Positions 1,017 to 30,667 of a stretch of DNA of 35,103 bases are shown here, piece by piece. A program made the position numbers and the translations under genes. The stretch lies in assembly GCA_049968235.1 (NCBI GenBank), contig JBMFRC010000029.1, positions 1 to 35,103 on the forward strand. The letters run 5' to 3'. Source of the DNA: Candidatus Hydrogenedens sp. (GTDB lineage Bacteria; Hydrogenedentota; Hydrogenedentia; Hydrogenedentales; Hydrogenedentaceae). The first letter of the stretch is position 1. The number at the start of each line of letters is the position of its first letter. Under the pieces are notes generated by a model. It had not been told where the DNA came from. It did no database searches and saw nothing but the letters and a program-made list of their open reading frames with translations.

Positions 1017-2036
1017 TCAGATAATCTTTTTAACTAATTTCTCAATCTCTGTGTATTTAACGAGAGAATTATAATCAAATAAGCAGCTCATTGCTTTAGA
1101 AACTACCTCTACACCATTTTCTGTTAAAACAGCAATTGGATTTAATCCTGCCAAAACAAGAATACCTGTTCTACCATTGGGAACAGACATATCCATGATC
1201 GGTTGGTTGGGCGTCCCGAATGCAAGAATTCCCCCTAACAAACATTTCTCAACTTCTTTTGACAATTCCTTTGCTTTGTTAAGTGAAACAGAAGGTATCT
1301 CACGGAAACTAACACCGATAACTCCGTTTCCTGTCTTTGTTGCAGACCATACATTTGTCATTCGTCCCCGTATGAAAATTTCAAGTGGGTCTATTGTAGT
1401 TCCGTCATAACTTATGATTTGTGTGAAACGTTTGGGTTCCCCATCTTCTAACTCTACAAGTGTCCCAAAACGGGAAGTCATTGGAATACCATATCGGAGA
1501 AATATCCCATTCAGACTAACACTGCAAATAGTCCCAATGGCTATGTGTTTTTTAGGAACACGAAAAGAACCTAATGTCTGTTCTTCATCAACAATGGTTA
1601 ATAATTTCCCCATACCCAGATTTTTCTCATAAACTTGAGATATTTTATTAATGTATTTAGGGAAATGTTCTTTTTTCAGATAACTAATATTTAATATTAT
1701 GTTCCCCTGTTTTTTTTCAAGGTCAAAATCCATGCGAAATGCTAACTCTTCTACTTTGGAAGAAACAAAACCCACTTTATCTACCGCAAGTTCTGTTTCC
1801 AATTCTTCCCTGCCACGGTTCGTAATTTTTCTCCCTTTTCTACCTAAATTCTCCGTCCAACCCATACGGTCAGTCAGTATCAAATAATCACGAATAGCAC
1901 GGTCTGTTAATTCTATTCCTGATAATCGTAATATTTCAGAAATACGTTCACTACCAATAGGTTCTTCATTGTTTGACAAAACATAAAGTATTGCTTGAAG
2001 TTGCCTTTTTATTTTTATATCACGAAAACTTTTCAT
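1017..2036 (-). CDS. nrpR: NrpR-like transcriptional regulator: an N-terminal RNase-R-type winged helix plus a single NrpR regulatory (DUF128) domain.
   Basis: The N-terminus (ILYVLSNNEEPIGSERISEILRLSGIELTDRAIRDYLILTDRMGWTE..GRKGRKITNRGREEL) matches the NrpR winged-helix consensus (HTH_12 type). The ~340 aa size fits single-domain NrpR homologues. Two GGAA-spacer-TTCC palindromes, the NrpR operator signature, lie in its upstream intergenic region. It is transcribed divergently from gdhA. Confidence 0.55.
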   Translation of the reverse strand: MKSFRDIKIKRQLQAILYVLSNNEEPIGSERISEILRLSGIELTDRAIRDYLILTDRMGWTENLGRKGRKITNRGREELETELAVDKVGFVSSKVEELAFRMDFDLEKKQGNIILNISYLKKEHFPKYINKISQVYEKNLGMGKLLTIVDEEQTLGSFRVPKKHIAIGTICSVSLNGIFLRYGIPMTSRFGTLVELEDGEPKRFTQIISYDGTTIDPLEIFIRGRMTNVWSATKTGNGVIGVSFREIPSVSLNKAKELSKEVEKCLLGGILAFGTPNQPIMDMSVPNGRTGILVLAGLNPIAVLTENGVEVVSKAMSCLFDYNSLVKYTEIEKLVKKII

Positions 2037-2221: not shown

Positions 2222-3589
<1,368 letters not shown>

Positions 3590-5671: not shown

Positions 5672-6211
5672 ATGAAATATAAAATTGTATTATCTGTTAT
5701 TGTTTTACTTTCAATGATAGGTAGTGTATATGGAGGATATAAAATTACACGGTTTCTCTTTACTAATTATGCCAAGCCTTTTTCCATACCTTCGGAAGAA
5801 TTAAACGATTATGAAGATTTGTGGCTATCTGTATCCATTTTATCGGACATATTAACAGAATATAATAAGCGAATGAAGGAAAAAGGAAATGCTTTTGCTC
5901 TAAAAGAGAGAGAGTGGATAATTCATAGTGCCCAGCCAACATTACAAAAGATAAAAGAGAAAATATTAGAAAAGCAAAATCAAAAAAGACAACGCTCAGA
6001 AAAAGTAGAAATATTATTTAGACAAATCCAATATTTAAGTGAGCGAATAAATACTATGTTTCAATTTCCCGCAGATGAATCCTTAAAAAAAGCCGTTTTT
6101 GCCGATTTTTATCAATATTTATGTTTATTACACGAATATATTGAACAGAAAAAACTCCAGAGACTTATTCCTACAAGTAGAATCGTGGTAAGATTTCAAA
6201 AAAACTTGTAA
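5672..6211 (+). CDS. Hypothetical membrane-anchored protein with a single N-terminal TM helix or signal anchor and a K/E/Q-rich helical region.
   Basis: 179 aa. The N-terminal hydrophobic segment is IVLSVIVLLSMIGSVYGG. The remainder looks like a charged coiled coil. The gene lies 12 bp after the SprT-like gene and is probably co-transcribed with it. No recognisable family. Confidence 0.35.
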   Translation: MKYKIVLSVIVLLSMIGSVYGGYKITRFLFTNYAKPFSIPSEELNDYEDLWLSVSILSDILTEYNKRMKEKGNAFALKEREWIIHSAQPTLQKIKEKILEKQNQKRQRSEKVEILFRQIQYLSERINTMFQFPADESLKKAVFADFYQYLCLLHEYIEQKKLQRLIPTSRIVVRFQKNL

Positions 6212-6287: not shown

Positions 6288-6923
6288 ATGACAAAAACAT
6301 CCGATAATAAAGCATTTGATGATAATCCTCGTTCTTCATACTCAGATGAAGCACTCATGTCGCTTCTTGTTCGAGGCGAAGAAATGGCTTTAACCGAACT
6401 TGTTCAGCGGTATCAGAACGAGGTGTTCCGTTTCTGTTACCATTATCTACGGGATATAGAAAAAGCCAAAGATGCTGTCCAGGAGGTTTTTTTACGCCTC
6501 TATATTGCAAGAGACCGCTATGATAATGAAAAAAGTTTTAAACCATGGATGTTATGTATTGCCCGAAATTTATGTCTAAATGAATTAAAACGGCAAAAAT
6601 TGGTCCATTTTGAAACGTTCGAAGGCTATATTGAAAATCAGAGTCGTGAGAACGAAGAAGAGATAGAAGGAATAGACATTCCAAAGACATTAACACCTTT
6701 TGAACAACTTGTAATTAAAGAAAAACAAAAAATTTTATGGGAGGAACTTAATGACCTACCTGAGGAAGCACGTGAAATTGTTGTATTAAGATACTTCGAA
6801 CGGTTACATGCGAGGGATATAGCAGAAATAATGGGTTCCACAGAAGGAGCCGTCCGTACAAGACTTCATCGGGTACTGAAATATTTAAAAGAGCGTCTGG
6901 ATGCACGGGGGGGATTTCAATGA
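6288..6923 (+). CDS. RNA polymerase sigma-70 factor, ECF subfamily.
   Basis: 211 aa. Region 2 (FRFCYHYLRD..AKDAVQEVFLRLY) and region 4 HTH (LPEEAREIVVLRYFERLHARDIAEIMGSTEGAVRTRLHR) are present. It is translationally coupled (ATGA overlap at 6920-6923) to an anti-sigma-like gene. Confidence 0.9.
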   Translation: MTKTSDNKAFDDNPRSSYSDEALMSLLVRGEEMALTELVQRYQNEVFRFCYHYLRDIEKAKDAVQEVFLRLYIARDRYDNEKSFKPWMLCIARNLCLNELKRQKLVHFETFEGYIENQSRENEEEIEGIDIPKTLTPFEQLVIKEKQKILWEELNDLPEEAREIVVLRYFERLHARDIAEIMGSTEGAVRTRLHRVLKYLKERLDARGGFQ

Positions 6924-8875
6924 ATAATGAATGTGAGAAATATAGAAATCTGATTTTAGAAAATCTCGAAAATAATTGCGAAGAAATTTATTTGCCAGAG
7001 CATATGCATCTTTGCCCTTCCTGCTTGGCTTTCTATAATGATATACAAAAATTAAAAAATAATTTAGAAACACTTGGTCTTATAATTAAAGAAACAATTC
7101 CCAAAATAGATGTCAGTGAAAATATAAAAAATGAATTGAAAAAGATAAAGAACGGTGAAATAGTAGTTCGGAAAATTGTAGAGCAAGAAGATAATATTCC
7201 GGAATTTGCAGAATGGTATGCATATATCGAAAATGACATAGATGAAGTAGCACGCTATCGTTGCGAATTAAGGATGGAAAAATCTTCACATGCAAAACAA
7301 GAAATAGAAAATTTAATAACAATACACCATGCCATAGATGAAATAGGTAGGTCATGGGAATGCCCTACCTTAAATGAAGATTTAACATACTGTATTATGG
7401 AGAAAGTCCACGAGTATAAATTATTTACTTCAATAGAAGAGAAGCATAGCGAAATAGATGTAATAGAAGAGCAACTCTATGAACTTTCTCATGTAGTTTC
7501 AGATTCTATCCGGGATATAGACATTGCCTCTAAAGTTGCAAAAAAGGCAAAGGAAATTTCACTGAAACAATCTAAGAAAGAAAAATCACCGCAAAATATA
7601 GTTAGCATTCTCTCTGTTAGAAAAGAAAAAGAAAACAAGAAATATTCTTTCAGTAATTATGTTATTCCTATTGCTATTGCGGTTGTGTTATGTCTTACTC
7701 TTTTAGGTGTTTATTTAAATAATTATTTTACTCAGGTTGATGATATAAAACAGGTTCAGGTTGCAACGAAGGAGATAGGAAAAGAAGGGCAATCATCATC
7801 AAAAATGGGTTTATATGAAACAACAGAACCCTTTTATATGAAGGGTAATAATATACTTGTTGAAAAAATCGGAAAAGATACAGAAAAAAGAACAAAGAAT
7901 AGAAAAAATAACTACGCCGAAGGGTTATTAAGTAATTGGACAAAACAGTTGAAAAATAATGCCCTAGAAAATGCAGGAAAATTAATGCGAATGGGAGTTT
8001 GGGCAACTCTTACCCCGGAAGAAGCCCGTGCATTACTACAAAAATCAGGACTTTCACCAGAAGCGGTATTAGGTGCTGTCCAATTTCTTCCCCCTGATGA
8101 GGCACGTGTAGTCCTTCAGGCGGCAATAGATAATAATCCCAACGATGCCTATTTAAGATATGCTATGGTCCAGACTTTGATGAAAATGGATAATGTATCT
8201 GAAGACGAATTGTATACACATTTGACGACATGGAGTCAATTAGACCCGGGGAATGCACTTCCGCATTTTATAGAAGCGGAGTTGTATTTCCAAAATGGAG
8301 AAAAAGACAAAGCACTCACCTGTGTTACGGATGCGGGGAATACATCCAATTACAATTCCTATGCGGCAATAACTGCAAAAGTATATATGGAAGCGTTGTT
8401 AGCAAAAGGTGTAGACCCTGAAACCGCTAAATTATTAGCATCCGCATCTATGGGGCTTCGTGAAGTTCAGACGATAGAAGAGATTGCACAAACTTTAATG
8501 GAATATGGAAGGGCTTATGAAGAGGCAGGAGATTATAACACCGCATTATTAATATATGAAGCCTTGCGAAGTTTAGGAATTAAAGTAGATATGAGTTCTG
8601 CTTTAATTCAAGAAAAATTAGCGGGCTTAAAATATACACAAGAGGCTATTAACGCTATGTTTCGTCTGATGAATACTACGAACTCATTCTCAGATACACA
8701 ATCTCTTATTGACTTTACTCAGACCCTTAGTGAAATGATAACAAACTACAATTTAGCAATGGATAGTTTCTATAAACTATTTGATAATTCAGACCCGACT
8801 GAGATTCTTCAAATATTAAATCTTTACCTTGCCAATGGGAACACTTCTATCCCCTTAAATTTATCTAATAAATAA
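6920..8875 (+). CDS. Anti-sigma factor with a zf-HC2-type N-terminal zinc finger, a single TM helix and a large extracytoplasmic helical (TPR-like) C-terminal domain.
   Basis: 651 aa. It has an H-x3-C-x2-C motif (EHMHLCPSCLAF) near the N-terminus, typical of ECF anti-sigma factors. Its 4-nt overlap with the sigma gene indicates coupling. A hydrophobic helix YVIPIAIAVVLCLTLLGVYL lies at about aa 245-268. The ~390-aa alpha-helical C-terminal region is of unknown specificity. Confidence 0.6.
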   Translation: MNNECEKYRNLILENLENNCEEIYLPEHMHLCPSCLAFYNDIQKLKNNLETLGLIIKETIPKIDVSENIKNELKKIKNGEIVVRKIVEQEDNIPEFAEWYAYIENDIDEVARYRCELRMEKSSHAKQEIENLITIHHAIDEIGRSWECPTLNEDLTYCIMEKVHEYKLFTSIEEKHSEIDVIEEQLYELSHVVSDSIRDIDIASKVAKKAKEISLKQSKKEKSPQNIVSILSVRKEKENKKYSFSNYVIPIAIAVVLCLTLLGVYLNNYFTQVDDIKQVQVATKEIGKEGQSSSKMGLYETTEPFYMKGNNILVEKIGKDTEKRTKNRKNNYAEGLLSNWTKQLKNNALENAGKLMRMGVWATLTPEEARALLQKSGLSPEAVLGAVQFLPPDEARVVLQAAIDNNPNDAYLRYAMVQTLMKMDNVSEDELYTHLTTWSQLDPGNALPHFIEAELYFQNGEKDKALTCVTDAGNTSNYNSYAAITAKVYMEALLAKGVDPETAKLLASASMGLREVQTIEEIAQTLMEYGRAYEEAGDYNTALLIYEALRSLGIKVDMSSALIQEKLAGLKYTQEAINAMFRLMNTTNSFSDTQSLIDFTQTLSEMITNYNLAMDSFYKLFDNSDPTEILQILNLYLANGNTSIPLNLSNK

Positions 8876-10222: not shown

Positions 10223-11827
10223 TTAATTTTTGATGTTAAATTTTCGATTAAATATTGATAAAATTTGTTTTATTTCCTTGATATTTAGAGACCATGCAGT
10301 TACCAAATATGTCAGGGAACAAACCAACCCTGTAAAACAAATATAAAGACTTAATACTATTATTCCATTTATATTTTTTATATTAAAAAATAAGTTTATC
10401 AAAAAGAACATACAAATTACAATAAAAATGGAAATCCCGTATTTCAATATATTCAATAAATACTGTTTGTTGATAAGATTTCCTACTTTGAATCCAATAA
10501 TGATAAATAAGATAAAAAAGTTTGTCCAGAAGGATATTGTAGTGGCTATAACTAATCCAAGATAGTCTAAAGGTCTAACTAAAAGAATATTTAAGACAAT
10601 ATTTAATATCATACTAAATGATGAAGTAATAACCGGTATAGTCGTAATATTCATGGCGTAAAAACCCTGAGTTAATACTTTTACACCGGAAAAACCAATA
10701 ACCCCAATGGAGTAGATAAAAATTGCATTTGCTGTTCTTTGAGTTAATTCTTCCCCAAAATGTCCCCTTTCAAAAAGTAATTGGACAATTGGCTTACCAA
10801 GAAGCATCAGCATAACCATAGCGGGTAATATCATAAATAATGTTTGTAAAAGTCCTTCCTGTAAAGCACCTCGAATTTTTGGATATTCTTTATTTGCAAA
10901 ATACCGCGATAACTCAGGGAGAAGAGATACAGACACTGCCGTACCAAAAATAGACAAAGGTAATTGTATAAGCCGATTTGCATAAAAAAGAGCAGATACC
11001 GTCCCTTCTGATAAAGAATATGAGAAAAAACTATCTACCAATTTATTAACTTCGCCGGCAGCCTGTCCAAAGATTATAGGGATAAGTAAAATAAATGCTT
11101 TTTTTACACCCTGTTGATTCCAATTAGTTGTAAAACCTAAACCTCCTAATTGTTTCTGAGCCTCAAAATATAAAACTCCTGCCTGAGATATACCTCCTAA
11201 CCAGAGTCCTATTACAAGCGACCATATAATATTGATAGAAAAAAAATAAGGAATAAAAATAGAAATAATTAAGGCGATATTGAGTAATGCGGGTGTTATT
11301 CCCGGTATTTTATAATCTCCCAGGACAAATAGGGGAGCCATCATAAAAACAGCGATTCCTATCCAGAAGAGATAAGGAAAAGACCACTGTAAAACACGAA
11401 CTGTTAATTGAAGTTGTTCTTCAGATTTCGGTAATTCTTGTGTAAATGTACTTAATGAACCTAATAATTGTGGAACAAATGGCATGAGCAGGACACCGAT
11501 TAAAGATACTCCTAAAAGAATTAAGAACATGATGGAAAAAAGAGAACTAACCAGTTGTTTCATAGCATTTCTTCCCTGTGTTTCTTCACATTCGGAAAGA
11601 ATAGGGACAAAAGAAGCATTAACCGCACCTTCCCCTAATAAATCTCGCAATGTGTTTGGTAAACGAAAAGCAAAGAGAAATGTGTCTCTTGAGAAATCAG
11701 GGACAAACCACCCTATCAAAATATCTCTAACCAGTCCTAAAATACGACTGAACATGGTTCCCCCCGCAAAAATCAATGCATACTTCCATCGAGAAATGGA
11801 TGTTTTGTCTGTTAGTTCTGTTTTCAT
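10223..11827 (-). CDS. murJ: Lipid II flippase MurJ (MviN).
   Basis: 534 aa polytopic membrane protein. The N-terminus (FSRILGLVRDILIGWFVPDFSRDTFLFAFRLPNTLRDLLGEGAVNASFVPIL) closely matches the MurJ N-terminal consensus. Confidence 0.9.
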   Translation of the reverse strand: MKTELTDKTSISRWKYALIFAGGTMFSRILGLVRDILIGWFVPDFSRDTFLFAFRLPNTLRDLLGEGAVNASFVPILSECEETQGRNAMKQLVSSLFSIMFLILLGVSLIGVLLMPFVPQLLGSLSTFTQELPKSEEQLQLTVRVLQWSFPYLFWIGIAVFMMAPLFVLGDYKIPGITPALLNIALIISIFIPYFFSINIIWSLVIGLWLGGISQAGVLYFEAQKQLGGLGFTTNWNQQGVKKAFILLIPIIFGQAAGEVNKLVDSFFSYSLSEGTVSALFYANRLIQLPLSIFGTAVSVSLLPELSRYFANKEYPKIRGALQEGLLQTLFMILPAMVMLMLLGKPIVQLLFERGHFGEELTQRTANAIFIYSIGVIGFSGVKVLTQGFYAMNITTIPVITSSFSMILNIVLNILLVRPLDYLGLVIATTISFWTNFFILFIIIGFKVGNLINKQYLLNILKYGISIFIVICMFFLINLFFNIKNINGIIVLSLYICFTGLVCSLTYLVTAWSLNIKEIKQILSIFNRKFNIKN

Positions 11828-13518: not shown

Positions 13519-14655
13519 TTACAAGTCGTCCTGCATGGCTTTAATTTCTTCTTCAATTCGGTCTGTATTTTGCCATTTATCCCCCCGTTTTTCCCAGAAC
13601 CGAATTGCACTGGACCCTTCCTCAGACATGGTCCGCAGGTCAACCACTGTAGGCTGGACAAATATAAGAAGGTGGGTAATATCCGATTGGGCTCTTCGGG
13701 AACGGAAAGGTATTCCTATTAGAGGAAGTTTCCCAATTCCCGGAACACGATTCTCAGATTTTCGAATATTCCGACTGGAAAGCCCTCCGATGACCAGCGT
13801 TTGCCCATTAGGGACAATGACAAAACCTGTTTGGGAACGCTTTGAAAATACAGGTAGGTCAATTCCTCTGAGACGGTCAATACGACTAATATCCGTTACA
13901 TCCAGTTGCTTGATTTCCAGTTGTATCATATTATTGGGTAATATTGTTGGAACTAATTCCAGATTTACTCCTATATCCCGCCACGCAACGCTTAAGTTTG
14001 GGGTAGCTGATTTTGTTATTGATTGATAAGGGATTTGCCCACCTGCTTTTATTACTGCGGGTGTAGCATTCATTACTAAAATCTCTGGTTTAGAAATAAG
14101 GTCAACATCAGATTTAGTTTCCAATGCACGAAAGACTCCATCCAATGTTCCATAATCCCATGTAAGTATGCTGAATGTTAAACCTCCTCCTTGTGGGGAT
14201 TGTATTCCAGGAAGTGATGCGTTTTCATCTCTTCGGATAGGTTTTTCACTAAAATCGGGATTTTTATAAGGAACGGCAAAAGGAGGTTGCGAAGGATTAG
14301 AAGATGGAGCAGGTATGGTGACTGAAGAAAAGTCCTGGGAGAAATCCATTGTATTTGTAGTTATTTGTGGTATTTTTAAATGTTCGTTTTCTTTTTCTCT
14401 ATAAAAACGTACAAAATTTAGATTTGTACCTAACTTTCTCATTCCGTTTTCATTTGTTTCACTAATCCATACTTGTACCTGTACCTGACGTATATCTTCA
14501 GGTGGAGGTGGTGTTGACGGAGGTGGTGGAGTAGCGGGTGGGGCTGGAGCCGGTTGTTGAGCGTCTTGTGCAAAAAGGTTAATTGTAAGTAATAAAAGAA
14601 TCGGCAATATATAAAATATCACAAAATATGTATATGTAAAGTTACTACGTTTCAT
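13519..14655 (-). CDS. Short secretin-family outer-membrane channel protein (secretin paralogue 1).
   Basis: 378 aa. A signal peptide ends ...LFAQDAQ and a Pro-rich linker follows. The C-terminal secretin-domain consensus is clear: GQTLVIGGL..RN.....VPGIGKLPLIGIPFRS.......LLIFVQPTVV. The size matches pIV/CpaC-class short secretins. The ATGA overlap at 14652-14655 couples it to paralogue 2. Confidence 0.65.
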   Translation of the reverse strand: MKRSNFTYTYFVIFYILPILLLLTINLFAQDAQQPAPAPPATPPPPSTPPPPEDIRQVQVQVWISETNENGMRKLGTNLNFVRFYREKENEHLKIPQITTNTMDFSQDFSSVTIPAPSSNPSQPPFAVPYKNPDFSEKPIRRDENASLPGIQSPQGGGLTFSILTWDYGTLDGVFRALETKSDVDLISKPEILVMNATPAVIKAGGQIPYQSITKSATPNLSVAWRDIGVNLELVPTILPNNMIQLEIKQLDVTDISRIDRLRGIDLPVFSKRSQTGFVIVPNGQTLVIGGLSSRNIRKSENRVPGIGKLPLIGIPFRSRRAQSDITHLLIFVQPTVVDLRTMSEEGSSAIRFWEKRGDKWQNTDRIEEEIKAMQDDL

Positions 14656-15869
14656 TTTCTGCCTTTTCCCTCATTTAAATCGGAGTCCACTCCATTTTCA
14701 TCTTTATTGATTTGAACACCTGTTATTCCCTCAGCTATACCTTCAGGGATTTCCTTCAATCCACCTAATACATTGGTAATTATTTCAGTAGGTGAGATTT
14801 TTGTAGATTTCTTTTCTTCTTCTGATGTAAAACCATACTGGTCTGCTACTGTATATGAAGGTCTCCATAACTCTGCTTTTAATAAGAACACAAGTTCTCT
14901 GCGTCCTTCATCTTTTTTCTTATTTCCTACTCCCTGACTTAGAGGTATTTCCGGTGTTTTAAAAGGGGTAACTCTTTGAATTAAACCATTTGCTAACCCC
15001 TCTCCCTGTATTAGCCAGGGGACAGAAGAGGATGTCTTTGTGCGGGTATTGCGATACAATCCCCCTAAAATTAACACCTGTCCATGTCGAACCCAGATGG
15101 TAGTTGTGATACTCCGTGAAATAAATTCAGGGACACTTATTGTGTTCGCTGTATTGCCTGCGATGGCTACATTAAGGCGTTGTCCTTCTTCTGTAATGGC
15201 TGCAGTGATTGTTAACTGAATATAAATATCTTCTGTTGTTCGTGGGTCTCCATCATCATCAATGACTTTATTTGCCTGAACACTTAAATTGACACCTGTC
15301 GGTTTAAATTCTGTTACTTGCTGTGTTACTACACCAATAACAATGGTGTTTTCATAAGGTATTTCTTGCACAGTTTGTATTACAGTAGGAGCAGATGCCC
15401 CCACCGGTACTAATGCCTTAGGACGAGATAGAATAAAAGCACGGTTTTGACTAACTAATGCTTGAAGTACCGCTTCAAAATCGCCCCATTTGCTTGTCAT
15501 CCTATCCAGAAACACAGTTATTGTCGGGGATTGGGTTGTAGGAAAAGTTAAATCACCTGTTGTTATGGTTGGATTCCCTAACGATACTCTACCATAGGGA
15601 CGAGGGTCTGTTTTTTGTCGGAAATAACCGGATAGCCCTGTTTCACTTCCAATGTGTGTCTGAAATTCAATAATTTTAACGGATACATTGACCTGTTGAG
15701 GTGTTGGGTTTTGAGCGAAAGTTATTAAAGTTAGATTTATAAGGTATATAAGGAAGAAGAAAATTCTATTGTTTTTATCAATTAAAAAATTCCCTTTTAG
15801 AGAGTAATGCATATATGTGCTAAAGTAATTTTGTTTTATTTTATTCATCGTAATAAGCCATATAATCAT
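14652..15869 (-). CDS. Short secretin-family protein (secretin paralogue 2). The start codon is uncertain; alternative starts are 15848 or 15812.
   Basis: 405 aa as tracked. The likely signal peptide is ...IFFFLIYLINLTLITFAQNP, whose cleavage region is paralogous to gene 1. A degenerate secretin core is present (GQVLILGGLYRN.....VPWL...GLANGL ... ELVFLLKAEL) with an insertion before the final strand. The tracked start overlaps the upstream TPR gene by 29 nt. No clear SD precedes any of the three candidate ATGs. Confidence 0.55.
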   Translation of the reverse strand: MIIWLITMNKIKQNYFSTYMHYSLKGNFLIDKNNRIFFFLIYLINLTLITFAQNPTPQQVNVSVKIIEFQTHIGSETGLSGYFRQKTDPRPYGRVSLGNPTITTGDLTFPTTQSPTITVFLDRMTSKWGDFEAVLQALVSQNRAFILSRPKALVPVGASAPTVIQTVQEIPYENTIVIGVVTQQVTEFKPTGVNLSVQANKVIDDDGDPRTTEDIYIQLTITAAITEEGQRLNVAIAGNTANTISVPEFISRSITTTIWVRHGQVLILGGLYRNTRTKTSSSVPWLIQGEGLANGLIQRVTPFKTPEIPLSQGVGNKKKDEGRRELVFLLKAELWRPSYTVADQYGFTSEEEKKSTKISPTEIITNVLGGLKEIPEGIAEGITGVQINKDENGVDSDLNEGKGRK

Positions 15870-16818
15870 AGTGGTCTACATTTTCTATATTATCAAAATT
15901 TACAAACTGCGCACTAAAAGGTTTAATTTGCCCCGAACTCAAGTTTCCAAGTGTAATAGTTTGTGTATCATAAACAACTCCACTAAATCCATAGATTGTT
16001 AACTGAACAGTTACATTTCGCAATGTTCTTGAACTACGGTTTCGAACCTGTCCGGAAACATTATATATATGATGTTTGAAATCACTGGACCAACCTAATG
16101 AGCGTCCACTTCGGAAAGAGGTTACATTAAAGAAAACAATAGGATTTTTTTCTGCTTCGCGTTTAAGTGCTTCTTCGGGAGTTAATACAACAATTTCACC
16201 ATTTGCTCCTTTTTCAAGCCTGCTGGAAATAACAGGATGAGACCAATAATTCGAATCTAAAGAAATTATAGATTTATAAAGATTTCCCGCTTTAGAGAAG
16301 TTCTGATTTATCCAATACCAATTGGCTAACTGTAACATAATATCTATATTTTGAGGTTCTTGCTGTAACTTTTGTTCAAGCATTCGAATCTGGTTTTCTA
16401 TCGTATCTACTTTTTCGATGTGGTTTATCGGTGAACCTATTAATGTTCCTATTTGTTTGCGAGAATGTTCCGCATATACGCCCTGTGGTGCTAATTGTAA
16501 ATATTTAATATAATAACTTAATGCATTTTGAGGACTTCCTAATTCTTGATATACAACCCCTAAAAAATAAAATGCGTTAGTATCCTTTTCTCCACTTTCT
16601 ATAACCGATAATAATTTAGGTAGAGCTTGAGAAAACTGTCCTTTTTCGATTAATTGCTGAGCCAGTTTTATTTCAGAAAAGGTAGTATTTGTATTATAAA
16701 GGTTTCGATGGCTTAGGTTCAGAAAATCCTTATCGCGTTTTATAAAAGGATTCCCCTGACAATTACCTAGATATAAAAGAAGGATTACTCCTATTATTAT
16801 TCTGTAATAATATACCAT
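15841..16818 (-). CDS. TPR-repeat secreted protein or lipoprotein; candidate pilotin or assembly factor.
   Basis: 325 aa. The N-terminal signal sequence has an atypical possible lipobox, LGNC. It has at least 3 TPR-like helical repeats (AFYFLGVVYQELG..NALSYYIKYLQLAP...). The C-terminal ~120 aa form a beta-rich domain of unknown family. It lies immediately upstream of the secretin pair. Confidence 0.5.
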   Translation of the reverse strand: MVYYYRIIIGVILLLYLGNCQGNPFIKRDKDFLNLSHRNLYNTNTTFSEIKLAQQLIEKGQFSQALPKLLSVIESGEKDTNAFYFLGVVYQELGSPQNALSYYIKYLQLAPQGVYAEHSRKQIGTLIGSPINHIEKVDTIENQIRMLEQKLQQEPQNIDIMLQLANWYWINQNFSKAGNLYKSIISLDSNYWSHPVISSRLEKGANGEIVVLTPEEALKREAEKNPIVFFNVTSFRSGRSLGWSSDFKHHIYNVSGQVRNRSSRTLRNVTVQLTIYGFSGVVYDTQTITLGNLSSGQIKPFSAQFVNFDNIENVDHYDYMAYYDE

Positions 16819-16881: not shown

Positions 16882-17286
16882 CTATCTTTTTGCAAGTCTT
16901 TCTAAAACTTTAGAGGTAATATCTTCGGCAGGAATTTGTTCACCAGTATTCTGCCAGTAATTAAACTCTGCCACAAGGTCAAACTGACTTTCTTGTGCTA
17001 CCTCTTGTATTGTTTTTACTGCCCGTTCACTGGCTTTGCTTAGCATTATCCAGTATTTCGCTGTGCCCGCCTCTATTTTCCTTTCTTTAATGCCTGCAAA
17101 TTCAGGTGTCGCTTGAATAATCTCTTCAAATTTAACCAGACCCGGTTTATTAAATTTGGAGGCAGTTCCCCAAAATATTTTCTGTTCATCTACCTTATCC
17201 GGTGATAAAGATAATGGGTCGGCTAATGCCCATAAATTACTGCACAGAAGGGCGAGGCTTATTATTAGAATTGTGCTTACCCGCAT
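16882..17286 (-). CDS. Small secreted protein, OmpH/Skp-like periplasmic chaperone candidate.
   Basis: 134 aa. The signal peptide is MRVSTILIISLALLCSNLWALA. The C-terminal segment (VAQESQFDLVAEFNYWQNTGEQIPAEDITSKVLERL) resembles the conserved C-terminus of Skp/OmpH proteins as recalled from memory; this was not verified. It is the first gene of the minus-strand envelope cluster. Confidence 0.4.
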   Translation of the reverse strand: MRVSTILIISLALLCSNLWALADPLSLSPDKVDEQKIFWGTASKFNKPGLVKFEEIIQATPEFAGIKERKIEAGTAKYWIMLSKASERAVKTIQEVAQESQFDLVAEFNYWQNTGEQIPAEDITSKVLERLAKR

Positions 17287-17778: not shown

Positions 17779-20346
17779 ATGAATTACAGGTTCTATAGGT
17801 TTTTTATTTTTGCTGTAATGGTTAGTTTGTTTTTATGTTTTTCCCCATGTTTGTCTTATGGAAATGAAATAGGTGATGAATATTCTGCCTTCCGTTTGTT
17901 AGATAAATCTGTTATACCTGGTAAAAATATTTCGTTGGAAATTTCTTTTGGTAATTTAATAGAAAAAGAGGGAGAAGCGTTAGTTCCTCTTATTTGTGAA
18001 ATGGATGCTAAGCATAGTTATTCTTATGTCGTGGCTTCTCTTGATATTTCAGAAGAAAAAAACAACGAAACTCCAATTCCTATTAATACTATCCAAACAG
18101 TCTCTTTAGTAAAGGGATATAATCGTATTCTATTTTTATTGCCCATTCAGAAACTGAAGGATGGCATTTACTATGGAAATTTACAGGTTAAATATACAAA
18201 AGAGGAAAAACCTGCAATTGTTGTATTTCAGATAGAAAAAATATCTTCTAAAGGATTGGAAGAACAATTAAATTTTGTCTCTCAAGAGGTTGATAATGTC
18301 ATATCTTTGAATAAAGATATACAGAATGACAAATCTGTAGAATTTAACTTAATACAAAATTTATTATTACAAGCCCGTAACGAATTTAATGATAAACATT
18401 GGGAGGATTTATCAGATACTTTGAATATATTACAGGAGCAAATTTCGCAGTTAAAAGATTCGCTTCCAAAAAGTAATGCAACAGTTATTTCTCCGCAAAA
18501 AGAAGACCTTTCTTTATCCATTACTCCGGAAGGGGTATTTTCAAACAAGAAACCTGTTAATGTAATTGGGATATATTTAAATGAGCCGACGATGGATAAT
18601 GCGAAAATGGTTATTGACTATGCCATTCCTGTGGTAGTTTTCCCTATTACACTGGATAAAATGTTTCCTACAGAATCGGGAGAACAAACATTACCCGCAG
18701 ATATTATGGGGATATTGGATTATTTGTTTGAAAATAAGGTTTATGTATTGTTTCAGATAGTTCAGGAACAGGTCCCTCCATGGTTATATGAAAAGACTCC
18801 GAACATACATAAAGATGGATTTGTGGATTTATCACAGAGACCTGTGTGGGACTTAATCGAAAAAGGATATAAAGAAATAATCAATTATTGTAAAGAGAAA
18901 TCATTTTTCCTTGGAATGAGTTTGGTAACTGAGCCCAAATTTAAGTTTGATGGTGATTTTGTGCGTCAGTCCTTTATTGAATGGGTTAAAGTCAATTATC
19001 CAGACAGACAAACATTAAATCAGGTATGGCATGCACATTTAGCGAATTATGAAGAAATTACCATTTGGGATGAGGTTGCTCCTCACTGGAGTTATCAAAA
19101 TCGTAGAGCCTACCAATATGATTGGCAGAATTTTCATCGGGAAATGATTTCAAACTTGTTAAAAGGTGCATTGGACCAATTCCGCTTATTTTCCTCCGAT
19201 GTTCCTGTTTCTATTACTTTCCCGTCAACAGTTTTTGAACTGGATGAAACCAAATATACCCCTGACCGGGAACAGACGATTCCTTATCTGGACTTTATCC
19301 CCATAAGTGTTTCGTTCAATACAGAAGATACAGTATACGCTCAAGGGTATCCTGACCCTGCTGTGGATGTCGTATGGATGCGTTCGGTATCTAAGGGAAA
19401 ACCCATTATTATCTCTTCTGCTAATTTAAATTTCAAAGAGGGTATGACAGATAATGAGAAATATAAACATACGCAAAGTTTCTTATGGGAGATGGCATTA
19501 GCAGGAGCACAGATTGTCGCTGTTAATATTACAGGTGATTTAAGGGATAATGTAGAGATATGGAAAGCCATTTTTGATACAAACTCCCTGTTTTTAAAAA
19601 TTAGTCCAGAACTTAGACAATTCCAATTATCAAAGGCAATGGTACGAGTCCTGTTTAGTGATTCCTCAAAGATTCTTGATGGAGGTACCCCTCATTTAAA
19701 ATCTGCCCGGTTCGCATACGAAGGGAGTTCCTTTGCTGGGTATGATGTGTGTTTTGCAACCGAAAAAGGAATAGAAACAGGGATATTACAGGATACGAAA
19801 GTTCTTATTATGCCTCAAACATTATCTCTCGAAGATGATGTTTTCAATATTATTACAGATTTTATTCGTAATGGAAATTATGTGATTCGTGTTGGGACAC
19901 AGATTCCCTATGACCCGAAAGGTATGTCCCGTCGGGATGTGGTTCAGCCTACCAGTAATACGATATTAGTGCGTGGAATGAATCTTCCTACAGAGTACCT
20001 TCACGGCATGGATGCTTTGATTTCTAAAAAGGCTTTGGCATCTATACCAAGACCAGTAAACAAAGTAGGCTACCCATTGGAGGGCATTAAGTCAAGATTT
20101 ATCCCTTCAGAAGATGGTGGAGGATATTTATATTTGCTTAATTTGAGAAAAGAAAAAGTCCTCTGCCGACTTACCGGGTATTTACAGAAGGGATATAGTT
20201 TGATGGATAATACGGAAATTGAATTTCCTAGAGAATTACAACCTTTAGAATTAATTTTTATGAAAATGGTTCCACCGGACTACGAAAAAATTGTTCAGAT
20301 AGAACCATTACCTACAAAAAAAGTAGAGAAGAAAAAGCATAAATGA
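17779..20346 (+). CDS. Large secreted protein with a clan GH-A-like TIM-barrel glycoside-hydrolase core and a beta-galactosidase-type trimerisation-like domain (GH42-like, tentative).
   Basis: 855 aa. The signal peptide is MNYRFYRFFIFAVMVSLFLCFSPCLSYG. An N-E-P motif (IGIYLNEPT, nt 18580-18588) sits in the position of the GH-A acid/base. A candidate nucleophile is LVTEP, with the Glu at nt 18931-18933. A downstream segment VLIMPQTLSLEDDVFNIITDFIRNGNYVI resembles the GH42 trimerisation domain. The first ~240 aa are unknown. Confidence 0.35.
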   Translation: MNYRFYRFFIFAVMVSLFLCFSPCLSYGNEIGDEYSAFRLLDKSVIPGKNISLEISFGNLIEKEGEALVPLICEMDAKHSYSYVVASLDISEEKNNETPIPINTIQTVSLVKGYNRILFLLPIQKLKDGIYYGNLQVKYTKEEKPAIVVFQIEKISSKGLEEQLNFVSQEVDNVISLNKDIQNDKSVEFNLIQNLLLQARNEFNDKHWEDLSDTLNILQEQISQLKDSLPKSNATVISPQKEDLSLSITPEGVFSNKKPVNVIGIYLNEPTMDNAKMVIDYAIPVVVFPITLDKMFPTESGEQTLPADIMGILDYLFENKVYVLFQIVQEQVPPWLYEKTPNIHKDGFVDLSQRPVWDLIEKGYKEIINYCKEKSFFLGMSLVTEPKFKFDGDFVRQSFIEWVKVNYPDRQTLNQVWHAHLANYEEITIWDEVAPHWSYQNRRAYQYDWQNFHREMISNLLKGALDQFRLFSSDVPVSITFPSTVFELDETKYTPDREQTIPYLDFIPISVSFNTEDTVYAQGYPDPAVDVVWMRSVSKGKPIIISSANLNFKEGMTDNEKYKHTQSFLWEMALAGAQIVAVNITGDLRDNVEIWKAIFDTNSLFLKISPELRQFQLSKAMVRVLFSDSSKILDGGTPHLKSARFAYEGSSFAGYDVCFATEKGIETGILQDTKVLIMPQTLSLEDDVFNIITDFIRNGNYVIRVGTQIPYDPKGMSRRDVVQPTSNTILVRGMNLPTEYLHGMDALISKKALASIPRPVNKVGYPLEGIKSRFIPSEDGGGYLYLLNLRKEKVLCRLTGYLQKGYSLMDNTEIEFPRELQPLELIFMKMVPPDYEKIVQIEPLPTKKVEKKKHK

Positions 20347-24676: not shown

Positions 24677-27600
24677 GTGAAAACAGCACCTTTTACCCAA
24701 ATGTTAGTTATGACTATTGTTGTCTTGTTCGTAATTTCCTGTGGAGGTGGAGATGTTAATAAAGGAGAGGGAACAAAAGAAATTGTATCCCAATCTCAAA
24801 ATGTTGCAAAAGAGGTTCCTAAAATACCGACACAGGAAGAAAATTTTTTGGTGCCAATATCCCAGTATCCTTTACCAGGGGATGCGATAGAAAAAAAGTT
24901 TATTTTATTCTTTGATAAAAATGTGCATTTCCCACCGGAGGTCCCTATTGATGAATATGTTAAAACAGAACCACCTTTAAAAGGGATTACGGACTGTGTA
25001 GAGAATAAAATTGTTTTTAATATACTGCAGGCTATTCCCAAAAATGTAGATGAAGTGGTGTTTCATATTCATCCGGAGTTGCAGTCAGAAGAGGGAATAA
25101 AAATAAATCCTCAAAATTTGAGTTATCGGGTTCCTGTTGAAGAAGTGCAGGTAGTAGAAGGAAATTTTAGTGAAGTGGGTGAAGATTATTTTATATTTTC
25201 ACTGGATTTTAACCACTATGTTATAGGGGATGATATAAAACATTTCATTTCCTTAAAGGACCAGAATAATGCGGATGTAGAATTTGATGTAAAATCTCCG
25301 GGACAATTCATAAATACAATAAATTTGCATGTAAAATGGACAGGAACTGAGTCTTATAAACTTTTAATTAAACCGGGCTATACAGATTACCGCAAGAAAT
25401 ACAAGGGACAGGGGGCTTATTTTGAATTTCCAATAAAAGATACATTAGAAGTTGTAGAATGTAAGAAGAAAAGTAATATGGGATATCAGATTGTATTTTC
25501 CAGACCGGTTTCGTCAAAAGCCATTTACAAGTGTCTGCGTATAGCATCATCTACTCAGAATAATATACCTTACTATGTTATACCTGCAGATGTGAGAGTC
25601 GTGCAAGAGATAGCAATAGATTTGCCCCAGAATTTAGAACAAATTGGAGAGGGAAAAATATCCAAAGCATGGATAATAAATTTGAAGAATCCATCTTTCC
25701 CTATGTATTCAGTCTCTATTGAGTTAAGAAAATCTACATGGTCTAACGATATGGCTCTTCTTCCTGAGGAATACCGATGGGAAACAAAAGTGAAGGAAGA
25801 TGGTGGGTTCAGTATTTACTATTCGTATTGGAAGAGTAATGGACTTGATGGTGTCTCTTGTTTTTTGAATATGACAAAGGTGAATAAAGAAACCTTTATG
25901 AAATATTTTGAAGTCATACCGCCTGTAGATAATCTTTCTATTAAGGATAGCCAGTGGAATGAAGTGGAGATAAAAGGGGACTGGAAGACGGGTGTAAAAT
26001 ACCTCTTAAAATTTAAGGCGGGTTTACAATGGGGAGAAAATAGTGGGACCGATGAGAATCCAAAATATATGTTGTTAGAAAGGGATTATGCATATACAAT
26101 GAAAGATGTTCCACAATTCAAAACACTTGATTTTGATAATAAAGATAAGTTTTATATCATTCCTTTCCATGAGAAGAACTACATTCGTGTTGGTTCACGT
26201 AATGTGTCCAAAGGATATATTCATATTTATCAAGTTATGCCCGAAAACCTTTCTATTTGGTTAGGGAATGTTTCAGAGAATACGGTTCCTTTTGAAATTA
26301 ATGAGAGAACTAGCAAATATCTTACTTCTATTCCCGTAGAGTTTCCCAATAGTGTGGATAGAGCAAGTTTCATTGATGTAGATATAACACAATATTTATC
26401 AGATGTCCCGAAAGGAATATTTACATTATGTTTATCGGATAATAGTAACCCGGGTAGATTAAGAGCAAGTTGGGAACCCAAAAAACAAGAAGAGGAATCT
26501 CAATTGGAAAATTATGGTTATGAGTGGGAGGATAGAGGAGATTCTTATTACTATCCTTACGGCGGTTCGAATGATGGAGATTCGTTTTATCAGGATGTAA
26601 AAGGTACAAGAAGTGCTATCCGATATATATTGTGGACTCGGTTAGGTGTTGTTTCTCATTGGGATGATGCAAGTTTAATGGCATTTGTTCATGATTTAAT
26701 AGATTTGACTCCACAGATGGGTGCTGTGGTCTCTGCTTATTCCATAAAGAATCTTAAAGTGGTGGAGGGAGTATCGGATAATAACGGTATTGTAAAGTTG
26801 ATTTTGGGAAAACAGGATTTAGGAACTCCACGGCTTCTTACTGTCAGGACGGATAAAGATTTTTCTTTTGTTTTATTAAAACCCAAAGAGTTACCTACAT
26901 TAAAAGAACTTGAAAAGTATGATAGTTTTGAAAAAGATAGATATGAAGCATTTATTTATACGGATAGGAATCTTTACCGACCGGGAGAATTGATACACTC
27001 TCGCTGGGTTGTACGGAAGAATTATGGCGCGGATATTATTAATGCTCCTCTGGAATTACGGTTTATTAATCCACAAAAAAAAGTTGTTCATCGTAAGATT
27101 GTGAATTTATCTGAATGGGGAACAGGGGGAGAAGACATAATAACAGAATTCACTTATTTGACGGGGGCTTATACTTTAGGCTTATATGTTCCCGGAGGAG
27201 AACTTTTATGTGGTTCTATTCCTATTTATATTGAAGATTTTGTGCCGGATAGAATTAAAAACGAAATCACTGTTCCTAACAAATTCTGGATTGTTGGTGA
27301 TGAACAAAGTTTTGAAGTTTCCTCTCAATATTATGTAGGACCACCTGCAGTGGATTTGCCATCTAAAGGTAAGTTAATTATTACTCCTACAGAATTTGAA
27401 CACGAAAATTGGAAGGGTTACCGATTTGGTAATGATGAAATATTAAAAACTGTAGTTATGGATTTAGGAGTTCAGAAAACAAATGAAGAAGGGAAATCTA
27501 ATTTTTCCTTTAATTTTAGTCCACCGGGACCTATTAATAAACCGATAGAAATTTCTATTGTGAGTGAAGTTTCAGAGGCAGGAGGTAGAGCCGTTTCTGC

Positions 27601-30600
27601 GGTGAAAAAAGTCAAAGGCTATCCTGAATCCGTTCTTTGTGGTCTAGGTGTGGAAAAAGTCGAAGATAAGTTGCAGGTTGTAGTAGCGTTGGTTGATAAG
27701 GATTTTGCTCCTGCTCTGGATGAAGAAGTGATTGTGTATTTAGAGAAAGTCGAATGGCGATATGTTAACCGGTATTATTCTGGAAGTAGTAGAAATACTT
27801 TTCCACAATGGGACCGTTACTTTACATTAATTGAGCAAAAGAAGGTAACCACAAGTGGTGGGAAAGCCACTGTTTACTTAAATATTCCCCAATATTATTC
27901 TACATATCGTATTAGAGCGCAGAGAACCAACGGGAAAGTTTTTTCAGAAGTCTCTTTTTATTCTGTTCCGGGCAAGATGATAAATCTTAAAGGAGGACCT
28001 CCGGAATTGGTGAAAATCCATATTGAGGATAAAAAATGGTTAGCCGGTGAAAAGGTTCCAGTAAATATTGAAGTTCCTTTTGATGGGAAAGCGGTTGCAG
28101 TGATACAGGGAGATAAAGTGTGGGATATGCAGGTCCTGGATATAATTTCCGGGAAAGGCAGTTTCTCTTTTGAGGTGAAAGAAGAATATTTCCCAAATGT
28201 TTGGGTTGGAGTGTCTGCTCTTCATGTCCCCACAAAAGAGGAAACAATTAGTCCTTATTCTACATTTTCTTTTGCGAAGGTAGATATTGAAAAGCCAACC
28301 CGAAAAATGAATGTTGAAATCTTAAATGTGCCAGAAGAAGTTAAACCTCAGAATACAATAGAGATTGGAGTTAAAACAACAGATAACAATGGGAATCCCG
28401 TTGCTTCAGAATTAACAGTTGCATTGGTCGATGAAGGGATACATTCTATTTTAGGTTATACTTTGCCCAATCCATACGAGTGGTTCGGTAGGTCACGATA
28501 TTCACCTATTCGCCGTGTACATTATTATGACCATGTAGCGTATGGCTATGACCCATTATCGCCCTCAGGGGATATGATAGCCCGACAATTATCCGCAGGG
28601 AAGCCAGAGATATCAGAGTCGTGGATAAAACCATTAGCGTTATGGTCAGGCTCTGTTAAAACGGATGAACAGGGGCAGGTAAAAGTTTCTTTTAATCTAC
28701 CCGAATTTAATGGAACTGTAAGGTTAGTTGCAGTGGGTGCCAATAAAGAGTTGGTAGGTTCCTCTGAAACGAAAATGTTTGTAAGACGACCCTGTGTTAT
28801 TCAAACGCACCTCCCTCGATTTCTACGACCAAATGACCGTGCTATAATTTTTGGCAGAGGGTTAAATGCTCAAGATAATCCGTTAGATATTAATCTCTCG
28901 TTAACACATAACGATGTTGTGGATATTGAGCCTTCTCAGATACACTGGGAAGCCGTTCCTAAAAATCTCAGCCTTTCTCCTGAAATCGTCCTATCTTGTC
29001 TTACAGGGACGAAAAATGCAGAGTTGAACTGGCAATATAATATTGTTGATAAAACGGGAAATATTATTGATGAATATTCAGAACATACTGTTATTCCCGT
29101 TCATTTGCCGTCTATATACGAGCAAAGAGTAAAGTCGTATGTGGTCCCAATTGGAGGAAATTTACAATTAGACACTTCCGAATTTGTTAACAATCCATTA
29201 TTAGAGACAGAAATCAAGATAGGTAGCACTCCATTTCTACGAATAGAACCTGCATTAAAATGGTTAAGGACTTATGATTATTGCTGTTGTGAACAAAAAA
29301 TTTCACGACTCTATCCTTTGTATATATTCCGCAATTTTTTGAAAGAATCTATGGAAGATGTCATTTCTAAAGAGAATTATGACCAATTATTATTAACAAT
29401 GGTAGATAGCTTGTTTGCACATCAGCAGGCGAACGGAGGTTTTTCGCTCTGGCCCTATAGTAATTCTACGGATATAAAAGCGTCCCTGCATGTGGCATTT
29501 CTACTGACGATGATTAATCGAGATAAAACATTGCCTTTACCTGAAAAACTCTATCAGCGGGTGCTTGCTTTTCTACAAGATGTATGTTCAGAAGAGAATA
29601 CAGAGGATTCCGTTAATGACCAATTTAAGGCTTATGCATCATTAATTCTTGCTTTAAATGGAGACCCTTCCGCATGTGAACGAGTTAATAATATGTTAAA
29701 AGCAGATTATCCACGGAATTTGAAAGTTCTACTTCTTCTGACAGCAGATATTTGTGGTGTTCCTCGTGAAGAATTGAAGAAATATGTGCAATTACTTCAA
29801 TGGGAAACATCTGTAGAAAACCAGATATGTCCATGGGAATATGGTTCTTCTGAAGTACGGGAGTATGCCTTGAAACTTATCTCAAAAGTGATTGCGGATG
29901 AACCCTTGGATAGCATTCATGAAACACAAAAACCTCTTATGGATTATATCTCTAATTATACAGGTTATACGACCTATAATTTGTCTATGATACTGCTGGC
30001 ATTAGATATAAGCTTTAAGAAGATGAATATACAGCCTTTTGAATATCAGACAGAAATAAAAATAGATGATAATGTCCAGACGCTTAAAGGCACAAAACTG
30101 CTTAAACGAAAGAAGCAGGGACCCACAAATATAGAAATTAACAATCAAGGAAATTCTCCATTGTTTGTTTATTGGACTATACGCGGGATTTCAAATAATC
30201 CACCTAAAGACGCACAATCAAAAAACATAGAATTGCAACGGATTCTTTACAATGCTCGCAATAAGACAAATATGGAAAGTCCTTACTTGCAGGGCAGTGT
30301 TTATGTAATGGAGTATCAAATAAAACCTCAAAAAGACGCTCAAAATTTAATTCTAACTCAATTGCTACCCGCAGGATTTGAGATTGAAAATCCGAGGCTT
30401 AAACAGGAACAAATATCGGATATATTCTCATCGATATCCAAAGAACCCGTCAATACGATTACCCCTGAACATATAGAAATAAGAGATGATAAACTTATTG
30501 TTGCCCTTCCTTCGTTAAGTTCGAGAAATAAGTATTCTTATGTATGTGCTATTCGTGCAGTTACGAAAGGAAGTTTTGAATTTCCAGGTGCTTATATTGA

Positions 30601-30661: not shown

Positions 30662-30667
30662 AATCAT

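Follow-up and report, generated by a model that had tools for sequence, protein, structure and literature searches.

The 35,103-nucleotide stretch analysed here (the window) comprises positions 1 to 35,103 of the forward strand of contig JBMFRC010000029.1, from the metagenome-assembled genome GCA_049968235.1 of Candidatus Hydrogenedens sp. Its interval 13519-15869 holds two adjacent minus-strand open reading frames (ORFs), which we call SecB (upstream) and SecA (downstream). Secretins serve as gates in the outer membrane for type II and type III secretion, type IV pili and filamentous phage. An initial annotation, made from the sequence alone, had read the two frames as tandem secretin paralogues that might build a hetero-oligomeric channel. 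The tandem frames, overlapping at an ATGA, were found exactly where that annotation had placed them:

13519..14655, minus strand: SecA, 378 residues, with a signal peptide, a proline-rich linker, one N3-like domain with an insertion, a full secretin domain and a short helical tail
14652..15869, minus strand: SecB, a divergent minimal secretin of 405 residues from the first ATG, with a signal peptide, one N3-like domain, a secretin core, an altered C-terminal motif and a conserved tail
14652-14655, minus strand: ATGA stop/start overlap of SecB and SecA, which reads ...AGA AAA TGA, with ATG AAA CGT in the SecA frame
13639..14127, minus strand: secretin domain of SecA, residues 177-339 (PF00263, 126.9 bits, profile positions 1-169 of 169)
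15012..15461, minus strand: secretin-domain match of SecB, residues 137-286 (PF00263, 63.6 bits, only profile positions 1-137 of 169)

A second ATG at 15848 offers an alternative start for SecB and gives 398 residues, as in NCBI model P0001. The purine-rich GAGGGAAAAGG precedes the overlap of the two genes. In the public database SecA is record MGC8739619.1, labelled 'type II secretion system protein GspD'.

Secretin identity and the divergence of SecB

SecA and SecB are both secretins, and they are paralogues. The Pfam scores listed above are to be read against a gathering score of 27.5 bits for PF00263. Pairwise BLASTP aligns the two proteins with 26% identity across 161 residues (E = 4e-9), and hhalign, applied to profiles of 65 SecA-family and 62 SecB-family sequences, aligns the families over 153 columns (probability 97.9%, E = 6.6e-13), stopping at VPxL, the start of the C-terminal loop motif. 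AlphaFold monomer models built on the same alignments show six long β-strands per protein in one-to-one correspondence, with a core pLDDT of 80-95. Each model has 39-40 Foldseek matches in the PDB at E <= 1e-3, and for both proteins all of these are secretins, including A. caldus 8jvb, InvG, GspD, PilQ, RcpA, BfpB and pIV; TM-scores of about 0.3 are low, which is what isolated protomers would be expected to give. The second paralogue is therefore secretin-related by pairwise alignment, by the secretin-domain hidden Markov model, by profile comparison and by predicted fold, and none of these gave the opposite result.

The core block cited in the initial annotation is present in the pair, as GQTLVIGGLSSRNIR in SecA and GQVLILGGLYRNTR in SecB. 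The similar signal-peptide contexts that it pointed to, ...NLFAQDAQQP and ...LITFAQNPTPQQ, are present as well, but they carry no weight as evidence of paralogy. By inspection, both proteins have a Sec signal peptide, with hydrophobic N-termini ending ...LFA/QD and ...TFA/QN and an AxAQ consensus in both families; the common 'FAQ' is a generic AxA-type signal-peptidase context, and we reject it as a sign of recent duplication.

Both proteins are minimal secretins: their signal peptide is followed by a single N3-like domain, which contains a disordered insertion, and by the secretin core. Judged by sequence, neither is a bona fide GspD, PilQ, MshL, RcpA or SctC, because all NCBIfam scores lie far under the curated cut-offs. 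The GspD model for the T2SS (type II secretion system), TIGR02517, gives 116.5 bits for SecA and 53.6 bits for SecB against a cut-off of 351.35, with coverage only from profile position ~335 on, and the PilQ model of the type IVa pilus, TIGR02515, gives 117.4 and 50.2 bits against 284.35. The NCBIfam matches span only the last N domain and the secretin domain, and a Pfam scan found no BON or T2SS-T3SS-N (PF13629) N-terminal domain in either protein. In a profile search of the PDB, SecA is nearest to T2SS GspD (E about 3e-30, over N3 and the whole secretin domain), SecB is distant from all secretins (best E = 5e-7), and RcpA is only mid-ranking among the matches of the two. The NCBI name 'GspD' is over-specific for these proteins, and the JGI label 'CpaC' on some homologues is not supported; such labels on both genes in public records constitute a systematic mis-annotation.

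The differences between the two proteins are concentrated in a few elements:

13705..13746, minus strand: canonical C-terminal loop motif of SecA, VPGIGKLPLIGIPF, residues 304-317, aligned to VPLLGDIPLLGQLF of V. cholerae GspD
14901..15020, minus strand: SecB residues 284-323 (VPWLIQGEGLANGLIQRV...), a predicted helix and an insertion in place of the VPxLGxIPxLGxLF loop
15228..15260, minus strand: acidic hairpin-tip insertion of SecB, DDDGDPRTTED, residues 204-214, of which ~10 residues are absent from SecA (BLASTP gap)
14655..14867, minus strand: C-terminal tail of SecB, residues 335-405, with the conserved amphipathic segment SPTxVITGVLxGIxxIPxGIAEG and, in the model, a helix at 360-373

Where SecA carries VPGIGKLPLIGIPFRSR, SecB has VPWLIQGEGLANGLIQRV, a replacement kept across its family as LPWLTQGED..NGL.QRV.P. 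The replacing helix is modelled at residues 284-300, where the Pfam and hhalign alignments end, and ~17 additional residues stand ahead of the last strand, RELVFLLKAELW, which the AlphaFold model nevertheless places at residues 317-334. The acidic insertion sits between modelled strands 181-204 and 215-235 and is nearly invariant in the SecB family, with D204, D206, T211 and D214 invariant. SecB also lacks the Gly-Gly of the SecA segment IKAGGQIPYQ, of which the first glycine aligns with the glycine of VGEEVP in V. cholerae GspD; its own sequence there is IQTVQEIPYE. By analogy with the GspD and InvG structures, these elements would lie at the gate hinge and the β-lip. The C-terminal tails of the two families are each conserved and distinct from one another.

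The initial annotation had called the second paralogue degenerate, and this description does not hold. The median Kimura distance is 0.73 for SecB and likewise for SecA, compared with 0.90 for Lnt, encoded downstream, and 1.11 for the lipoprotein encoded upstream. Because SecB is as constrained as SecA and has the complete strand set, it is not degenerate; its family-specific segments are strongly conserved, and the protein is specialised rather than in decay. The possibility of a decaying, pseudogene-like copy was rejected on its conservation, which equals that of SecA.

Conservation of the pair and of its junction

Database searches returned 405 SecB-family and 415 SecA-family clusters, of which the named ones are nearly all from Hydrogenedentes; for many pairs, the contigs of the two members are of equal length. 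A scan of one genome per GTDB species yielded 80 loci, essentially all in Hydrogenedentota. By tblastn, SecA adjoins SecB on the same strand in every one of the 75 non-redundant Hydrogenedentota loci with sequence beyond SecB (75/75); in the six loci that lack SecA, the sequence runs out no more than about 360 nucleotides after the SecB match. The initial annotation had proposed that both copies and their order be sought in related genomes, and both are indeed kept; relatives with a single copy only, which would have spoken against it, did not appear among these loci. A SecB-SecA fusion considered for locus L068 was ruled out, since in translation the two frames are separated by a stop codon and ~21 nucleotides of spacer.

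The pair belongs to a four-gene cassette, followed in the window by two genes on the same strand:

16882..17286, minus strand: OmpH/Skp-like small periplasmic protein, 134 residues, signal peptide; first gene of the cassette (Pfam OmpH E = 1.8e-4, below the gathering score)
15841..16818, minus strand: lipoprotein of 325 residues with TPR Pfam matches and a C-terminal FxLYD domain (NCBIfam FxLYD_dom, 35.9 bits against a cut-off of 23)
15841..15848, minus strand: overlap of the lipoprotein stop with the probable SecB start (the second ATG), ATGAATAA
11838..13421, minus strand: lnt, downstream of SecA
10223..11827, minus strand: murJ, downstream of lnt

The order OmpH-like protein, TPR/FxLYD lipoprotein, SecB, SecA is constant across the Hydrogenedentota loci. 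An OmpH-like orthologue lies upstream in 67 related loci and also in the distant loci L083 and L090. In roughly half of the related loci, lnt and murJ come next after the pair; this synteny is gone in many loci where the four-gene cassette is intact.

Many of the records with a Hydrogenedentota-type cassette (L005, L009, L014, L018, L020, L047 and others) are titled 'uncultured Nitrospirales/Nitrospiraceae', and L047 is titled 'Candidatus Bathyarchaeia archaeon'. These titles are probably taxonomic mislabels, or the contigs are mis-binned.

The pairing extends beyond Hydrogenedentota. An exhaustive HMMER search with the SecB profile gave ~14 full-length representatives of the family proper and a lower tier of relatives of 290-390 residues. 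In nine more distant contigs (L083-L086 and L088-L092), of which L084 and L086 are Candidatus Sumerlaeota, the order is again lipoprotein, secretin 1, secretin 2. The protein upstream of these pairs matches the lipoprotein profile with E = 1e-49 to 1e-80 and is orthologous in all nine. For the seven scored loci (L083-L086 and L088-L090), secretin 1 scores 94-168 bits on the SecB profile against 65-94 bits on the SecA profile, and secretin 2 scores 89-249 bits on the SecA profile against 17-47 bits on the SecB profile. Because each distant secretin thus favours the profile of its positional counterpart, the duplication is older than the split of Hydrogenedentota, Sumerlaeota and the other lineages.

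The distant SecB orthologues also date the changes in SecB. They keep the canonical VPxLGxIPxLGYLF, have no long tail, and are only about 290-330 residues long. Since the orthologues of Sumerlaeota and the other distant loci keep the motif, the pairing is older than its loss, and the altered features of SecB arose later, as a specialisation of Hydrogenedentota in a protein that was already paired. The loss of the GIP/LF motif, which the initial annotation had singled out together with the insertion, is real for SecB in this genome but does not define the pair.

One locus, more distant still, is of a different kind. At L087:106-1376, a single minimal secretin of 292 residues follows an OmpH-like gene of the same family as 16882..17286 (E = 3e-19). 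The two profiles score this secretin about equally, at 103 bits (SecA) and 91 bits (SecB), and no FxLYD lipoprotein was called beside it; it may represent the unduplicated state.

The overlap of the two genes is conserved as well. A stop/start overlap of -4 or -1 nucleotides is present at the SecB/SecA junction in 70 of 76 loci, and the same procedure gave the following counts at the other junctions:

OmpH-like gene to lipoprotein gene: 1/67
lipoprotein gene to SecB: 8/78
SecA to lnt: 1/45
lnt to murJ: 13/37

It is found as well in the Sumerlaeota contig L086 (1 nucleotide) and in L088 (4 nucleotides). The evolutionary rates of the two proteins also co-vary. The distance matrices of SecA and SecB correlate with r = 0.82, against 0.58-0.69 for either secretin with the other neighbours; housekeeping neighbours correlate with each other at 0.84-0.90. 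When the neighbour (species) signal is regressed out, the partial Mantel r for SecA and SecB is 0.72-0.86 (p <= 0.0005 by permutation), compared with 0.30-0.61 for control pairs. The argument for stoichiometric co-expression, which the initial annotation had drawn from a single overlap, is strengthened by the specificity of the overlap for this junction and by the co-varying rates.

A proposed complex of two secretins and its alternatives

The adjacency, order and overlap of the two genes, kept since before two phyla diverged, argue for two secretins acting together. We propose that SecA and SecB are two subunits of one outer-membrane secretin complex. SecB and SecA would be produced by coupled translation from one mRNA, together with the TPR/FxLYD lipoprotein, which would be pilotin-like, and the Skp/OmpH-like chaperone; the two secretins would then co-assemble, most simply as a mixed ring, in about 1:1 stoichiometry. 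In the outer membrane, the complex would act as the portal for a type IV filament machine, either a type IV pilus (T4P) or a T2SS-like system, with its inner-membrane parts encoded elsewhere. In Hydrogenedentota, SecB would be further specialised: the hinge glycines are missing from its first inner hairpin, a hairpin tip carries the acidic insertion, a predicted helix replaces the amphipathic loop motif, and the tail is conserved. With these changes the pore would have two kinds of gate and membrane-contact elements.

We consider the chances of an obligate two-secretin outer-membrane complex to be about even. Its more specific form is a tentative suggestion: an alternating mixed ring in Hydrogenedentota, Sumerlaeota and related uncultured lineages, in which two paralogous subunits would build one double-walled barrel with two non-equivalent sets of gate hairpins and membrane contacts. 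Physical co-assembly, its stoichiometry, the role of the lipoprotein and the machine served are features that we infer.

The assignment to a type IV filament machine is weakly supported. The window encodes no core component of a T2SS, T4P or Tad system, and no ATPase, platform protein or pilin. Only in L083 was the cassette found physically linked to genes of type IV filaments: two pilin-like ORFs of 136 and 359 residues, with N-termini ...GLTLIE and ...GVTLIE and in one case a Pfam N_methyl match, directly follow the secretin pair. Next come a 629-residue ORF lacking any Pfam match, a gene for a HEAT-repeat protein and, ~5 kb downstream from the pair, pilM; the whole group occupies L083:9488-14993. 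Type IV pilus genes have been reported in all Sumerlaeota metagenome-assembled genomes (PMC8092238); a paper on Hydrogenedentota and Sumerlaeota metagenome-assembled genomes makes no mention of pili or secretion systems (PMC10866078), and a preprint takes up type IV pili for Elusimicrobiota alone.

Several points weigh against the proposed complex. Stop/start overlaps are common in operons generally. The mirror-tree signal was built on fragments from best high-scoring segment pairs, with a permutation test that carries no model of phylogeny, and it could arise from constraints common to any two secretins of one cell (the same outer membrane, the same pilotin) and not from contact. Every solved secretin in the PDB is a ring built from a single secretin sequence, and each ring among the matches has 12-17 identical chains. 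Both SecA and SecB lack the N0 domain, which is the usual contact to the inner-membrane platform; the pilin and pilM neighbourhood of L083 does not recur in L089-L092, and no pilin-type N-termini occur within the ±6 kb flanks of about 80 Hydrogenedentota loci. Known partners of secretins are non-secretin proteins (PMC12531336), and mixed secretin multimers 'would likely be nonfunctional', so that the varied targeting routes of secretins have been explained as preventing them (PMC3230066).

Alternatively, SecA and SecB would form two independent homo-oligomeric pores, serving two machines or substrates (for example one T2SS-like and one T4P-like) and co-regulated in an outer-membrane biogenesis operon with a common pilotin and chaperone. 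All characterised secretins are homo-oligomers, the complete strand set predicted for both proteins means that each could in principle close a barrel, both copies in the distant loci have the canonical membrane-loop motif, and the conserved C-terminal tails of SecA and SecB are distinct. Against two independent pores stand about 84 loci in which neither copy has been lost, separated or reordered, an overlap conserved specifically at the junction between them, and rates that co-vary beyond the controls. Moreover, co-translation of related secretins that use a common pilotin is the very setting thought to yield mixed multimers (PMC3230066). We regard this alternative as rather unlikely.

A role for SecB as an assembly factor or accessory ring is improbable, although several of its features would suit one. 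Derived from a secretin, SecB would then nucleate, stabilise or gate a homomeric SecA pore as a scaffold, a cap or a collar in the periplasm, resembling BfpG/TcpQ, TsaP and pilotins in role and not in fold. In Hydrogenedentota, neither the canonical amphipathic loop motif nor the hinge glycines are found in SecB, which bears an additional acidic loop and a tail, coupled translation fits a fixed ratio of partners, and stoichiometric accessory rings are known in secretin complexes (17:17, 15:15, 14:14 and 14:7; PMC12531336). However, all six long β-strands of the double barrel are kept in the SecB model (pLDDT 80-95), and the distant orthologues are entirely canonical minimal secretins with the membrane-loop motif, so that the ancestral pair consisted of two pore-competent subunits.

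Least probable of all, in our judgement, is a stand-alone outer-membrane channel tied to envelope biogenesis (lnt, murJ, the Skp-like protein, the BamD-like lipoprotein), exporting for example a polymer or surface lipoproteins and having no role in a filament, T2SS or type III secretion system: it would explain why neither the window nor the ±6 kb flanks of the Hydrogenedentota loci contain an ATPase, platform or pilin gene, why Lnt and MurJ follow the pair in about half of the loci, why both secretins lack N0-N2 domains, and why one lipoprotein orthologue is labelled BamD/ComL-like with a weak YfiO match, but secretins are not known outside filamentous phage and machines of the filament or needle type, in L083 the pair is immediately followed by pilin-like genes and, further downstream, by pilM, and the lnt/murJ synteny is lost in many loci that retain the cassette intact.

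If SecA and SecB do share a barrel, they would be the first such case in a family regarded as strictly homo-oligomeric, and ideas on how ring symmetry, gating and membrane insertion are encoded would change. With its two distinguishable subunits, the pair would also allow secretin assembly to be dissected in a natural system. Although the organisms are uncultured, the proteins are small enough (about 300-400 residues, one N domain) for heterologous co-expression and cryo-EM to be practical.

Neighbouring genes and known systems

The cassette provides one lipoprotein and one chaperone for two secretins. The lipoprotein is record MGC8739621.1, named 'FxLYD domain-containing protein'. In its sequence a cysteine follows the hydrophobic N-terminal segment (LLYLGNC), and the lipobox pattern is found in 52 of 70 orthologues, with G-C or A-C in most others; because most orthologues bear a canonical lipobox, we classify the protein as a lipoprotein. 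It is a candidate pilotin or assembly factor. Its score on the PilF/PilW model TIGR02521 is 37.5 bits against a cut-off of 154, and a PDB sequence search with it gave only generic TPR proteins. One orthologue, at L085:8906-9835, is labelled BamD/ComL family by JGI and has a weak YfiO Pfam match; this BamD-like label, the Skp-like gene and lnt together hint at a link to general outer-membrane biogenesis. No terminator-like site was seen between SecA and lnt.

Divergent from the cassette, across a 490-nucleotide AT-rich spacer (~28% GC), the window encodes an 855-residue signal-peptide protein with a weak GH42 (β-galactosidase) match (17779-20346, plus strand). In 34 related loci a homologue of it lies close to the cassette, mostly upstream and in divergent orientation.

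The contig carries several further genes. A gene for an NrpR-type regulator (1017-2036, minus strand) is divergent from a glutamate dehydrogenase gene (2246-3589, plus strand); NrpR is best known as a nitrogen repressor of methanogenic archaea. At 6288-8875 (plus strand), a sigma-70 gene of the extracytoplasmic function (ECF) type overlaps, at 6920-6923, the start of a gene for a 651-residue TPR protein, possibly its anti-sigma factor or partner. At 24677-32989 (plus strand), a bacterial α2-macroglobulin of 1994 residues is directly followed by a PBP1C-type penicillin-binding protein with transglycosylase, transpeptidase and BiPBP_C domains, which looks like an ordinary gene pairing. Three ORFs have no Pfam match at E <= 1e-3: 11-985 (plus strand, 324 residues), 5672-6211 (plus strand, 179 residues) and 32990-34537 (minus strand, 515 residues).

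It is instructive to compare the pair with characterised secretins. The T2SS secretin GspD (V. cholerae, E. coli and P. aeruginosa XcpQ; PDB 9k8v, 5wq8, 5wln) is the best sequence match of the SecA family, and its fold is common to SecA and SecB. GspD, however, has N0-N3 domains, is encoded in the gsp operon, forms a homo-15-mer and uses a dedicated small pilotin, whereas SecA and SecB have one N domain each and are an obligate pair away from gsp genes. PilQ with its TPR lipoprotein pilotin PilF/PilW, and likewise RcpA with TadD of the Tad system, resemble the cassette in that a secretin is encoded with a TPR lipoprotein; SecA scores about equally on the PilQ and GspD models, and RcpA and PilQ are among the fold and sequence matches. 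In contrast to the present pair, PilQ and RcpA each occur as a lone secretin whose N-terminal domains are of the AMIN/N0 or BON type, and the lipoprotein here has an additional FxLYD domain.

Secretin complexes of two proteins are known: BfpB-BfpG (17:17), TcpC-TcpQ, PilQ-TsaP (14:7) and GspD-AspS/PulS (15:15), with a secretin-pilotin ratio of 14:14 also given in a structural paper of 2025 that lists the complexes in full assembly (PMC12531336). As may be the case here, a co-encoded, stoichiometric second protein is needed in these complexes for multimerisation or function. There, however, the partner has an N0-like fold, a LysM domain or a pilotin fold, whereas here it is a full secretin paralogue. 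A search of the literature on heteromeric, tandem, paralogous, Hydrogenedentes or Sumerlaeota secretins found no such pair described, although subscription journals were mostly outside its coverage and absence is thereby unproven.

The nearest precedents for mixed rings come from PulD, for which ladders of full-length and truncated protein indicate that variants of one secretin can form mixed multimers when made together in vitro (PMC4604470). Those are variants of a single protein, whereas here the co-production of two paralogues is conserved across phyla. Natural mixing of secretin paralogues is regarded as deleterious and is avoided in P. aeruginosa (PMC3230066). A conserved, co-translated pair of paralogues with a common lipoprotein is the opposite of an arrangement that avoids mixed multimers.

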